NCBI GenBank assembly: GCA_951406725.2
Contig: OX597827.1
Location: 75,950,001-76,014,000 of the forward strand
Reading direction: 5' to 3'
DNA length: 64,000 nt
Source of the DNA: Octopus vulgaris
Lineage: Eukaryota
Below the pieces are notes generated by a model, which was not told the DNA's origin, did no database searches, and saw nothing but the letters and a program-made list of their open reading frames with translations. The first letter of the stretch is position 1. Each line of letters opens with the position of its first letter. The position numbers were made by a program, and so were the translations under genes. Shown here one piece after another: positions 2,259-45,585 of this stretch.

Positions 2259-2473
2259 TTTAAAAACAACAAAGATATATAAGAAGTATTTTTTGTTCTG
2301 TAGATGGTTACATCATAAAGTTGTATTACACACACACACACTTACACACACACACATACACACGCACACACACATCCATATATATATCAAAAGGATGTGT
2401 TATAATACTATTCTACAGCCATAGCAAAAATCCAATAATACTAATCTGCATATACAAAAACAGCCATTCCAAC

Positions 2474-2542
2474 AATCCATCATCAGCTGCCCCACAGATA
2501 TCATTATAGTTTCAACACCTGAGCAGGACCAGTCAATCCGGC
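2474..2542 (-). ncRNA. Putative rearranged (non-circularly permuted) hammerhead ribozyme, diverged copy
   Basis: Minus strand reads TG-GTC|CTGCTC-aggtgtt-GAA-ACTA-14 nt-GGGCAG-CTGATGA-tggatt. Stem I has 6 bp, stem III has 4 bp and the triplet is GUC. Stem II is poorly paired. Confidence 0.55.
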
Positions 2543-3012
2543 AATGCCAAGTGCATTAAAATAACAAACTAGAGAATTCACAACTTTCAAACACATTTAC
2601 TCAATGTACAACCGTGTCAATAAATAAATTCCATAAGTAAATTACAACCCCTCCTAAATACATAACTAAACAGTGACAACTCTATTAAGTCATAAAAAAT
2701 TATAATCCCTACTGTCTTCCATATCATCATTTAGCGTCCGCTTTCCATGCTAATAAAAGTAAAGCTTAATAACCACATTATTTCAGTCAATCAATAGGCA
2801 GGACTAAACACTAACCTTACAAAAACTACAACAAGAGACATTTAAACCAATGTACATTGTATCAGTTTTAATAGGAAACTGCAATAACTAAATTATATGC
2901 TAAATTGCGATCAATCGTTAAGTCCATATAAATAATAATTCCACCGGTCTTCCATAGATACTACTATAATGAAATACATATATTGTGCATCTGTCTGTAT
3001 ATATATATATAC

Positions 3013-4434: not shown

Positions 4435-4439
<5 letters not shown>

Positions 4440-4770
4440 GTTTCCTTGTCCTGTTATTCTTTATTTGTACTGTTTTTTCTTCATTTGTATTGCTTTTACG
4501 TCCTGTTCTTGTCATTTGTTTTACCCCTCTGCAAAAGAATTTTATTTAATTCCTTTTGCAGAAAGGACTGCTTCGGCCGGGTTGTGTTCTGCCCTTACCT
4601 TTGAAACACGCATTGAGTTGAACCAGGGGCAGCTGATGAAGGGGAATTTTCCTTGTATTGTTTGTCCTGTACTCTGTTTTTTCGTTGTTAAAAAAAGTCC
4701 GTTTCCTTGTTTGATTTTATGTTTTCGTTTCTCGTTGTGTTCTACATTTATTTGTGGTATCCTGTACTCA
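4435..4770 (+). mobile_element. (TA)n-flanked, T-rich small element carrying a hairpin and a rearranged hammerhead
   Basis: Bounded by TA-rich microsatellite on both sides. Hairpin tctgcaaaag...cttttgcaga at about 4528-4562. Confidence 0.6.
4576..4644 (+). ncRNA. Putative rearranged (non-circularly permuted) hammerhead ribozyme
   Basis: Reads TGTGT-T|CTGCCCTT-a-CCTTT-GAA-ACACG-14 nt-AGGGGCAG-CTGATGA-AGGGG. Stem I has 8 bp (4589-96/4625-32), stem II has 5 bp (4640-44/4598-4602) and stem III has 5 bp (4606-10/4583-87). The triplet is GUU. Confidence 0.7.
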
Positions 4771-5129
4771 TATATGCATGTATATATACATATAGATGTA
4801 AGTATGTACATATATGTATGTATATATGCATATGTTTTATTTATTATATTGTTATATATATATATTCTTTTATACTTTTACTTGTTTCAGTCATTTGGCC
4901 GCAGACATGGCAGAAGTTATGGTGCTTGGCTGAGATGTTTGCCACACCCTTCATATTTGCCCAACTTTATGCCTTTGAATTTTCACTTAATTCAGCTTTT
5001 TCAATATTCAGCGCTGAAGAGGATGTAAAAATTCACCTGGTAGAGCTTTTCACCAATAAATAGAAGCAATTCCTTGAGTTGGGAATAATGGATCTGCCCA
5101 CAATATGGCAGAATATACTAGAATGAAAT

Positions 5130-12127: not shown

Positions 12128-12167
<40 letters not shown>

Positions 12168-12318
12168 CATAAGGGACTAAAGCCATCTGAATATGGCTAG
12201 GGACAGGGCAGGGTGGTGGGGGTGTTACTGTTGCATTTAGCCCCAGGCGAACATCGACGTCACCAGAAAGGCTCGACACCGTCACGGTGCCCTTAACCTG
12301 CAAAGGGAGGTAATTCCC

Positions 12319-12400
12319 CGATGAAGCGGAAACCACACACGGACCATGGTTTCAAGGTGTATTGCCTATCATCGGCGTGTGGTAGGCCTCCGCTTCCTCG
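12319..12400 (-). ncRNA. Type I hammerhead ribozyme, array copy 1
   Basis: Minus strand reads GAAGCGGAGGCC-tac-CACACG-CCGATGA-T-AGG-caataca-CCT-T-GAA-ACCATGGT-C|CGTGTG-t-GGTTTCCGCTTC. Confidence 0.8.
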
Positions 12401-12678
12401 ACGAATTCTCACTCTGCAGGATTTTCTTATATAGATTTTCAAGCAAAATACATTTGCTGATTTCGAAAATCTGTTCGAAAGCAATAATAATTCTCTAAAA
12501 GGGATATAGACAGTAACTGCTCGATAACATAAGGGACTAAAGCCATCTGAATATGGCTAGGGACAGGGCAGGGTGGTGGGGGTGTTACTGTTGCATTTAG
12601 CCCCAGGCGAACATCGACGTCACCAGAAAGGCTCGACACCGTCACGGTGCCCTTAACCTGCAAAGGGAGGTAATTCCC

Positions 12679-12760
12679 CGATGAAGCGGAAACCACACAC
12701 GGACCATGGTTTCAAGGTGTATTGCCTATCATCGGCGTGTGGTAGGCCTCCGCTTCCTCG
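12679..12760 (-). ncRNA. Type I hammerhead ribozyme, array copy 2
   Basis: Identical to copy 1, offset +360. Confidence 0.8.
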
Positions 12761-13038
12761 ACGAATTCTCACTCTGCAGGATTTTCTTATATAGATTTTC
12801 AAGCAAAATACATTTGCTGATTTCGAAAATCTGTTCGAAAGCAATAATAATTCTCTAAAAGGGATATAGACAGTAACTGCTCGATAACATAAGGGACTAA
12901 AGCCATCTGAATATGGCTAGGGACAGGGCAGGGTGGTGGGGGTGTTACTGTTGCATTTAGCCCCAGGCGAACATCGACGTCACCAGAAAGGCTCGACACC
13001 GTCACGGTGCCCTTAACCTGCAAAGGGAGGTAATTCCC

Positions 13039-13120
13039 CGATGAAGCGGAAACCACACACGGACCATGGTTTCAAGGTGTATTGCCTATCATCGGCGTGT
13101 GGTAGGCCTCCGCTTCCTCG
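13039..13120 (-). ncRNA. Type I hammerhead ribozyme, array copy 3
   Basis: Identical to copy 1, offset +720. Confidence 0.8.
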
Positions 13121-13570
13121 ACGAATTCTCACTCTGCAGGATTTTCTTATATAGATTTTCAAGCAAAATACATTTGCTGATTTCGAAAATCTGTTCGAAA
13201 GCAATAATAATTCTCTAAAAGGGATATAGACAGTAACTGCTCGATAACATAAGGGACTAAAGCCATCTGAATATGGCTAGGGACAGGGCAGGGTGGTGGG
13301 GGTGTTACTGTTGCATTTAGCCCCAGGCGAACATCGACGTCACCAGAAAGGCTCGACACCGTCACGGTGCCCTTAACCTGCAAAGGGAGGTAATTCCCCG
13401 ATGAAGCGTCCCTAGCCATATTCAGATGGCTTTAGTCCCTTATGTTATCGAGCAGTTACTGTCTATATCCCTTTTAGAGAATTATTATTGCTTTCGAACA
13501 GATTTTCGAAATCAGCAAATGTATTTTGCTTGAAAATCTATATAGAAAATCCTGCAGAGTGAGAATTCGT

Positions 13571-28937: not shown

Positions 28938-29710
28938 GAAATCGATCAATGGAAATTGCAGATGTGTTACCAGTGCCGGTGGCATGTCGATACTCTACTT
29001 GTGAAGACCCGTTGAGGCAAGTGAGGATCAGAAATGGAAATCGATCAATGGAAATTGCAGATGTGTTACCAGTGCCGGTGGCATGTCGAAACTCTACTTG
29101 TGAAGACCCGTTGAGGCAAGTGAGGATCAGAATGGAAATCGATCAATGGAAATTGCAGATGTGTTACCAGTGCCGGTGGCATGTCGATACTCTACTTGTG
29201 AAGACCCGTTGAGGCAAGTGAGGATCAGAAATGGAAATCGATCAATGGAAATTGCAGATGTGTTACCAGTGCCGGTGGCATGTCGAAACTCTACTTGTGA
29301 AGACCCGTTGAGGCAAGTGAGGATCAGAATGGAAATCGATCAATGGAAATTGCAGATGTGTTACCAGTGCCGGTGGCATGTAAGAGAACCTTCTGTTTCG
29401 CGACCGTTGCCAGCACCGCCCCGTTTCGTGTCCGTTGCCAGCCTCGCCTGGCCCTTGTGCCGGTGGCACATAAAAAGCACCATCCGTTCGTGGCCGTTTG
29501 CCAGCTCTGTCTGGCACCTGTGCGGGTGGCATGTAAAAAGCACCCACTACACTCACGGAGTGGTTGGCGTTAGGAAGGGCATCCAGCCGTAGAAACACTG
29601 CCAGATTTGACTGGGCCTGATGAAGCCTTCTGGCTTCACAGACCCCAGTAGAACCGTCCAACCCATGCTAGCATGGAAAACGGACGCTAAACGACGATGA
29701 TGATGATGAT
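28938..29710 (+). mobile_element. RTE 3' UTR insertion headed by a 99/98-bp tandem array
   Basis: Units start at 28938, 29037, 29135, 29234 and 29332. The sequence continues into the conserved tail and (GAT)n. Confidence 0.85.
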
Positions 29711-44301: not shown

Positions 44302-45585
44302 AATCTCCCTGATAACTATGCTAAGGGTACCCTCTGAGAATATCCCTGAGAACTACATTAAGGGTACTCCTTGAGAATCTCCCTGAGAACTATGCTAAGG
44401 GTTCACTCTGAAGATCTCCCTGAGAACTACACTAAGGGTACCTCTTGAGAACTATGCTAAGGGTACACTCTGAAGACCTCCCTGAGAACTACACTAAGGG
44501 TACCCTCTGAGAATCTCCTTGAGAACTACGCTAAGGGTACACTGATGATCTCCCTGAGAACTACACTAAGGGTACCCTCTGAGAATCTCCCTGAGAACTA
44601 CACTAAGGGTACCCTTTGAGAATCTCCTTGAGAACTATGCTAAGGGTTCACTCTGAAGATCTCCTTGAGAACTACACTAAGGGTACCCTCTGAGAATCTC
44701 CCTGAGAACTACACTAAGGGTACCTTCTGAGACTCTCCCTGAGAACTACACTAAGGGTACCTCTTGAGAACTATGTTATGGGTACACTCTGAAGATCTCC
44801 CTGAGAACTACGCTAAGGGTACCCTTTGAGAATCTCCTTGAGAACTATGCTAAGGGTACACTCTGAAGACCTCCCTGAGAACTACACTAAGGGTACCCTC
44901 TGAGAATCTCCTTGAGAACTACGCTAAGGGTACACTGATGATCTCCCTGAGAACTACACTAAGGGTACCTCTTGAGAACTATGTTAAGGGTACACTCTGA
45001 AGATCTCCCTGAGAACTACACTAAACTTCATATGCTAAGGGTACCCTCTGAGAATCTCCCTGAGAACTACATTAAGGGTACTCCTTGAGAATCTCCCTGA
45101 GAACTACTAAGGGTACACTCTGAAGATCTCCCTGAGAACTACACTAAGGGTACCTCTTGAGAACTATGCTAAGGGTACTCTCTGAGAATCTCCCTGAGAA
45201 CTACGCTAAGGTACACTGATGATCTCCCTGAGAACTACACTAAGGGTACCCTCTGAGAATCTCCTGAGAACTAACTACCTTCATCTCCTGAGAACTACAC
45301 AAAGGGTACTCTTTGAGAATCTCCTTGACAACTATGCTAAGGGTACACTCTGAAGATCTCCCTGAGAACTACACTAAGGGTACCTTCTGAGAATCTCCCT
45401 GAGAACTACACTACCTTGAGAACTATGCTAAGGGTACACTCTGAAGATCTCCCTGAGAACTACACTAAGGGTACCCTTTGAGAATCTCCTTGAGAACTAC
45501 GCTAAAGGTACACCTGATGATCTCCCTGAGAACTACACTAAGGGTACCCTCTGAGAATCTCCCTGAGAACTACACTAAGGGTACA
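44302..45585 (+). repeat. Minisatellite of about 37 bp expanded inside a SINE (SINE about 44140-45680)
   Basis: Unit gaatctccctgagaactacactaagggtaccctctga with shorter variants, about 35 copies. It matches the single-copy SINE segment at 9860-9890. Confidence 0.95.

Follow-up and report, generated by a model that had tools for sequence, protein, structure and literature searches.

Positions 2474..2542 of a 64,000-nucleotide stretch of the Octopus vulgaris genome (contig OX597827.1; the whole stretch is hereafter the window) carry, on the minus strand, the conserved letters of a hammerhead ribozyme in rearranged order. A first-pass annotation had read them as a diverged member of a family of rearranged hammerheads, shared with a second motif nearby. 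We asked what element the motif belongs to, how its strands pair and whether its RNA could cleave itself.

Two hammerhead-like motifs in the window

Read 5' to 3', the minus-strand motif consists of CTGGT, C17 (2527), CTGCTC, a linker, GGTGTT, GAA-ACTAT, 13 nt, GGGCAG and CTGATGA (Table 1). These coordinates bear out the strand order (block S, block G, then the CUGAnGA block C) and the spacing given by the annotation. The hammerhead core positions C3-A9, G12-A14, A15.1-U16.1 and H17 are all present, of which A15.1-U16.1 and H17 are demanded by the descriptor of the family search.

The window contains two matches, this motif and another at 4588, to a descriptor made of the core plus at least 4/5 pairs in each of stems I and III. 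When the descriptor was run against dinucleotide-shuffled sequence, as the annotation had proposed, 200 shuffles gave a mean of 0.08 and never two motifs, and both motifs can be regarded as real. The GGGCAG-CUGAUGA string said to be shared by them is indeed common to both: GGGCAGCTGATGA occurs exactly 2 times in the window, a count that lies within chance (21/100 shuffles) when up to 2 mismatches are allowed. The flanks of the two motifs show no alignment beyond microsatellite, as had been noted for the 2474 motif and the 4435 element.

Rfam covariance models gave 0 matches at E up to 10 for window 2400-2700, and Rfam hammerhead families of types I-III were absent for the whole window among the 150 of 656 matches listed. 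Minimum-energy single-strand folds were unremarkable (z-scores -1.36 to +1.46) and are uninformative for a pseudoknot. A canonical hammerhead on the opposite strand was rejected, there being, by eye, no CUGAnGA in place in either of the two repeat families, A and B, to which the motifs belong.

The window contains several tandem repeats as well. A 360-bp unit is repeated 3.5 times at 100% identity at 12164-13408, by recent duplication or as an assembly effect; a minisatellite of 37-bp units, in which higher-order periods of 62, 134 and 393 bp are also seen, occupies 44302-45584; and GC-richer tandem units of 67, 63 and 99/197 bp lie at 2021-2240 and 28938-29544. A GGTGGCACATAAAAAGCA-like motif occurs in both the 67- and the 63-bp unit, and these are probably pieces of common interspersed repeats.

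Table 1. Features of the two motifs and of the surrounding element (window coordinates)
Feature	Position	Strand	Basis
3' end, truncated on its 5' side, of a family-B Naiad Penelope-like element of Naiad_Obim type, flanked by (TA)n/(TATG)n microsatellites	2387..2977	-	RT/thumb continuity in longer copies; Naiad_Obim match by eye
Closing-domain remnant (inserted hairpin and P0 5' strand), with a gap of 18 nt between 2565 and 2564	2549..2565	-	pairwise alignments; intact register in family B
Stem II 5' strand, G10.1 at 2548; GGCATT here, GACACC in typical copies	2543..2548	-	pairing tests
P4 5' strand GCCGGAT and non-bulged strand (TGA) of predicted kink-turn	2533..2542	-	family-B pair counts; kink-turn from sequence pattern
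Block S: stem III strand CTGGT and N17 = C (CTGGT-C, 2532-2527; predicted cleavage 3' of N17 at 2527), stem I strand CTGCTC (2526-2521)	2521..2532	-	sequence
Block G: stem II 3' strand GGTGTT, G12-A13-A14, stem III strand ACTAT (GAA-ACTAT, 2513-2506)	2506..2519	-	sequence
Bulged strand of predicted kink-turn (AATGA) and P4 3' strand	2493..2505	-	family-B counts
Stem I 5' strand GGGCAG (2492-2487) and C3-A9 CTGATGA (2486-2480)	2480..2492	-	sequence
Tail after A9, forming the P0 3' strand; lacks 11 nt near 2476/2475 compared with L033	2469..2479	-	pairwise alignment
Second motif, family A1: P0 CCCCT/AGGGG, hairpin 4530-4561, stem II AAAGG/CCTTT, N17 at 4588 (GUU), core 4633-4639	4524..4644	+	separate repeat

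Repeat families carrying the motif

In the octopus genome, a pattern of the shared letters in S-G-C order gave 570 matches versus 0 with a reversed control, and these split into families A and B. A wider pattern, which itself demands the kink-turn letters described below, gave 786 matches versus 10 in controls and added further families. The hammerhead family proposed by the annotation stands in so far as these counts support core blocks rearranged in a non-circular order; its topology does not, the downstream stem II being absent. Nor do the two window motifs form one family, as had been claimed: they belong to separate repeats, family B at 2474 and family A1 at 4588. Counts of motif copies given below refer to a set of 86, obtained from 92 matches by removing five mis-registered duplicates and one match judged to be chance (L128+).

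Family-B copies have a common end about 120 nt past the cut site, adjoining (TA)n, and their 5' truncation points vary. Families C, A3, D and E (loci L121-L150) share the wiring of family B with unrelated letters; family C is large, with a GUC triplet and 16 nt from cut site to GAA, and the other three are smaller.

Family A (window 4435-4780, plus strand; L181, L185, L192, L193 and L195) is a unit of about 0.8 kb with no recognisable ORF, an internal (TA)n and a GUU triplet, the last found in 17/17 copies of A1 and A2. Five of the six loci checked are partial tandems of this unit, the tail running on into the unit start. The family looks like a non-autonomous, retrozyme-like element carrying the motif; an autonomous parent was looked for and not found. 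Short partial-tandem units with no recognisable ORF are likewise a feature of retrozymes in the accounts consulted (PMC11167929, bioRxiv 10.64898/2026.07.22.740005).

Family B is a Naiad Penelope-like element

Longer family-B copies enter a reading frame on the same strand as the motif, with a thumb region and, further upstream, PADKA, YDFSTLYT and GIP. Read frame by frame in the broken copies L101, L107 and L114, this ORF has a DKA motif and an RT whose thumb is terminal at the C-terminus; by eye, no C-terminal endonuclease (no GIY-YIG pattern) lies between thumb and motif in family-B copies. DKA and a C-terminal RT are given as the marks of Naiad Penelope-like elements (PLEs) by Craig et al. 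2021 (PMC8557442). By eye, the typical family-B 3' end is the published Naiad_Obim consensus end and a sister form in L003 and L022 is Naiad_Ovul; the flanks of family-B copies are a (TA)n target. On three tested features, namely DKA with C-terminal RT, match to a published consensus and (TA)n target, we assign family B to the Naiad clade, with which it also shares 5' truncation (PMC8557442). By the same sequence comparisons, window 2387-2977 on the minus strand is a decayed, 5'-truncated 3' end of a Naiad retrotransposon.

PLE-type RT fragments also lie on the strand opposite to the motif, in L009 (~2540-2940, relative +1042 to +1438) and in the upstream flank of L006. An element coded on that strand was rejected: the fragments are not continuous with the element, and the Naiad ORF is on the motif strand.

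In the passages covered of PMC8557442, Naiads are described as lacking a canonical hammerhead; 'HHR_core' is flagged in 10 of them and 'HHR_half_core' in 8, including Naiad_Ovul and Naiad_Esco. Those passages offer no fold for either flag; one is proposed here.

Stem II pairs upstream of the cleavage site

In 70/86 copies the pentanucleotide preceding GAAA forms at least 4/5 pairs with a strand that lies upstream of the cut site at a family-fixed distance; the offset was chosen for each family as the best of 22, an overfit for families D and E, which have one member each. The strand after CUGAnGA, with which the annotation had paired stem II, reaches at least 4/5 pairs in only 2/86. A G-C pair at 10.1-11.1 is found in 64/86 copies. 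For ten hand-picked representatives, which include seven different stem II sequences (among them GACAC/GTGTC, GAAGG/CCTTC, GGGCA/TGCCC, GGCCT/AGGCC and GTGCC/GGCAC), the upstream partner scores 49.5/50 against a permuted mean of 24.8 (0/20000 permutations), and downstream partners are at chance level (7730 and 6410 of 20000); this permutation test ignores relatedness, and the counts for stems I and III are partly built into the descriptor. The upstream GACACC complements GGTGTC in family B, as GAAGG complements CCTTC in family A, and an upstream partner with 5/5 Watson-Crick pairs is present in each of five motifs encountered incidentally in the flanks of loci (L048+, L123-, L130-, L146+ and L098+). 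Between families, stems I, II and III show covariation, stem II solely with its upstream partner.

In the window copy the upstream partner lies at 2548-2543, outside the annotated interval. The annotation had itself named a family consensus lacking stem II pairing as counting against its model, and this is what the copy counts and the permutations give for the downstream topology; a strict type-SGC hammerhead with a bulged nucleotide after A9 is rejected on the same two grounds. Because stem II pairs upstream of the cleavage site and not after CUGAnGA, the chain is predicted to be open between A9 and G10.1, an arrangement that we call split-core.

A proposed closing domain, a fourth helix and a predicted kink-turn

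G10.1 is immediately preceded on its 5' side by a hairpin, and the hairpin in turn by a strand complementary to the tail after A9; we call the helix that this strand and the tail would form P0. In family A, P0 is CCCCT/AGGGG beside a long hairpin and is present in the minimum-energy fold of the window's family-A copy; in family C representatives it reaches at least 8 bp. The P0 of family B is weak, with three pairs in 29-31/36 copies followed by a C·A mismatch in 20/36, and a free duplex-energy test gave no separation from controls (-5.8 versus -7.0 and -6.3 kcal/mol). Among 25 B-like loci, chosen by a pattern that fixes core and tail letters and nothing upstream, 14 have a P0 partner (at least 5/6) immediately upstream of the hairpin, within the 12 nt where it is expected, versus 6.4% of 750 control windows.

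The fourth helix suspected in the annotation emerges as P4, whose strands CGGAT/ATCCG pair in 27-33/36 family-B copies per position and which is seen by eye in other families too. In family B it continues stem III beyond an internal loop with a kink-turn pattern, a 3-nt bulge with tandem G·A/A·G (TGA in 35/36, GA in 32/36), which has no Rfam match. Family A1 and the coral entries described below do not preserve these GA pairs. The pattern leads us to infer a possible kink-turn between stem III and P4 in family B.

The window copy is a decayed member of family B

The annotation had taken the GUC triplet, the C-G to U-G change in stem I and the ACTA/TGGT pairing of stem III as covariation within a conserved structure. 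Set against 35 other family-B copies, the window copy has minority letters at 11 motif positions. Its GUC is unique within family B, C at N17 being found in 0/35 of the others and the family triplet being GUA in 34/38 copies, and the U-G of stem I and the ACTA/TGGT of stem III are minority C-to-T changes within family B. These differences are copy-level decay. In pairwise alignments its closing domain has a gap of 18 nt relative to L040 and L032 and of 22 nt relative to L033. Its pair at 10.1-11.1 is G·U, stem II has four wobble pairs, stem III ends in a mismatch and the closing domain is lost, so that the copy is likely inactive or very slow, though all core letters are kept; the annotation's suspicion that it may be dead seems probable to us as well.

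Split-core motifs in other phyla and relation to known hammerheads

The same wiring can be read in other Naiads. Our readings of File S5 of Craig et al. (PMC8557442) were made by eye among the matches listed and are examples rather than a census. In the entries before Naiad_Aacu and Naiad_Anas (coral-type), an 8-bp P0 is accompanied by a hairpin, P4 has 9 bp, stem III is long, the triplet is GUA and stem I has 6 bp; stem II of the former is GGCTCC/GGAGCC. The entry before Naiad_Mley has a P0 of 10 bp, stem II GGCCCA/TGGGCC and a stem I of just 2 bp, and an unlabelled entry in part 9 has the wiring with AUA. By eye, these four entries, coral and ctenophore consensus ends among them, keep the strand order and the pairing scheme of the octopus motif, although their letters are unrelated to it. 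An intact type-CSG hammerhead, with a continuous C block and a 12-bp outer helix, can be read by eye in front of Naiad-2_Nbra; in PMC10085705, as far as consulted, type CSG is known solely from metagenomes.

The rearranged class of type SGC was published by Eckert et al. 2023 (PMC10085705), where SGC and CSG forms are reported to cleave during transcription. The Naiad motif has in common with these types the reverse cyclic block order, the crossing of stems I-III and the short linker between stems I and II. It also shares with them a fourth helix, located where stems I and II terminate on the outer side, with P4 as the counterpart of helix 'I' (PMC10085705). Two features of type SGC, the 5'-3' order S, G, CUGAnGA and a helix that connects stems I and II at their outer ends, are found here. 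A third, the uninterrupted block C with a stem II strand within 1-2 nt of A9, is confined to 2/86 copies: block C is split at A9/G10.1 and closed by P0 and the hairpin, while PMC10085705, in the parts consulted, assumes that block C is uninterruptible. On sequence features, the motif resembles a type-SGC/CSG hammerhead yet lacks the unbroken C block, which is among the traits that define SGC. The published forms come from metatranscriptomes and metagenomes rather than from the genomes of known organisms and were shown to cleave (PMC10085705); ours is a ribozyme predicted in an animal retrotransposon. The octopus, coral, ctenophore and CSG forms are all variants of a single ring of strands and differ in where it is opened; in the octopus the opening lies inside the core.

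With the type I hammerheads of canonical PLEs and non-LTR retrozymes, the Naiad motif shares its location near the element 3' end; those hammerheads have the canonical CGS order and an unbroken core in the descriptions consulted (PMC11167929, bioRxiv 10.64898/2026.07.22.740005). The closest parallel to the break itself is the CChMVd (+) hammerhead, in which an extra A between A9 and G10.1 is tolerated with a moderate slowdown (PMC1636495). The backbone position is the same, with one nucleotide in a canonical topology there and a chain opening with two helices here. In the literature consulted, including the core variants of PMC3088659, no precedent was found for two helices inserted at A9/G10.1. 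No description of split-core wiring was found in the openly accessible main texts that were searched.

A predicted hammerhead opened at A9/G10.1

The explanation that we favour, and consider fairly probable, is that the locus is a decayed Naiad 3' end whose RNA is a predicted hammerhead opened at A9/G10.1, intact copies likely self-cleaving after GUA about 120 nt before the 3' end. In such a fold, stem III would continue through the kink-turn into P4, bending back to the outer ends of stems I and II, and these two stems would run between the core and the outer junction reached by P4. The tail after A9 would pair 5' of the hairpin abutting G10.1 to form P0; P0 and hairpin would stack at the A9/G10.1 break and hold the broken core strand together. 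That a single added residue at this position already slows CChMVd cleavage counts against an active two-helix insertion.

The likeliest role of the predicted cleavage would be to cut partial-tandem transcripts to unit length. Stems II, III, P4 and P0 would clamp both cleavage products and favour re-ligation, which we propose as the reason why inserted copies are unbroken across the cut site. The partial tandems of family A fit the proposed cycle of cleavage and re-ligation. It is possible, if doubtful, that Naiads from ctenophores to octopus share a hammerhead with the catalytic strand split at A9/G10.1 and a multi-helix junction, outside the six-order scheme, and that this is the missing Naiad ribozyme, making unit-length circles as insertion templates via cleavage and re-ligation.

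The 5' ends of copies abutting (TA)n show no enrichment at the cut site: 5/21 places lie at 0/+1 and 5/21 at -11/-13, where 91 overlapping rows were taken as 21 places and a forward/reverse ratio of 87 to 4 suggests undercounting. Together with the in vitro results for a Poseidon hammerhead given below, this speaks against a strong role of cleavage. Two neighbouring family-B copies (L028 / L062-L079; G000:C1:136493693 and 136494295) start exactly at the predicted cut site after (TA)n, which TA microhomology and local duplication could explain.

Alternatively, a hammerhead-shaped RNA may be kept for another job, such as recognition by the Naiad protein, the start of reverse transcription or 3' end formation, with weak, protein-dependent or no cleavage. 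We think this unlikely. Insertions intact across the cut site, the lack of 5'-end enrichment and the uniform GUU of family A are what it would expect. It also has a parallel in another PLE, Poseidon, for which the portions consulted of PMC11167929 report that insertion in vitro can do without the hammerhead (PAc mutants of the hammerhead insert all the same), that protein is needed to cleave and that no read ends at the site. Against it, CUGAnGA, GAAA and UH are kept with G10.1-C11.1 across families whose helices differ wholly, as expected of selection on catalysis.

That the helices form between two RNA molecules or tandem units, as a domain-swapped dimer, is improbable in our view. Folding within one chain would require three sets of helices that cross one another and a return path that is tight, minimal PLE hammerheads are active as dimers, and most of the family-A loci checked are in partial tandem. 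Linkers of 0-6 nt and the kink-turn-like element nevertheless suit a ring made of one chain, and SGC/CSG hammerheads already published, which are built on this ring, cleave as they are transcribed (PMC10085705).

We see very little chance for the model of the first-pass annotation, in which the motif would be an ordinary type-SGC hammerhead that has one extra nucleotide behind A9 and forms stem II weakly on the downstream side: allowing the inserted nucleotide, family A can pair G-C, G·U, G·U and G-C downstream and family B can form two pairs, but the scarcity of copies reaching 4/5, the failure of family C to pair downstream (0/21) and the chance-level permutations speak against it. That short motifs came together by chance in a repeat that transposition then multiplied is extremely improbable and largely refuted already by the covariation between families: copy number alone is uninformative, Rfam gave no match and minimum-energy folds are unremarkable, but at least five sequence-distinct families in the genome, and the entries from other phyla, keep the core letters with compensated helices.

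Implications of the proposed split-core hammerhead

The window copy itself is just a decayed instance of the split-core family that we propose. If the split-core motif cleaves, it would break the stated rule that the CUGAnGA block is uninterruptible, and non-circularly permuted hammerheads would move from environmental RNA into animal genomes. Cleavage would also overturn the report that Naiads lack a hammerhead, and genome-wide hammerhead counts would be missing a large class. The function of PLE hammerheads would become testable on a clade spread across phyla, and the motif would provide a scaffold with free ends inside the core.
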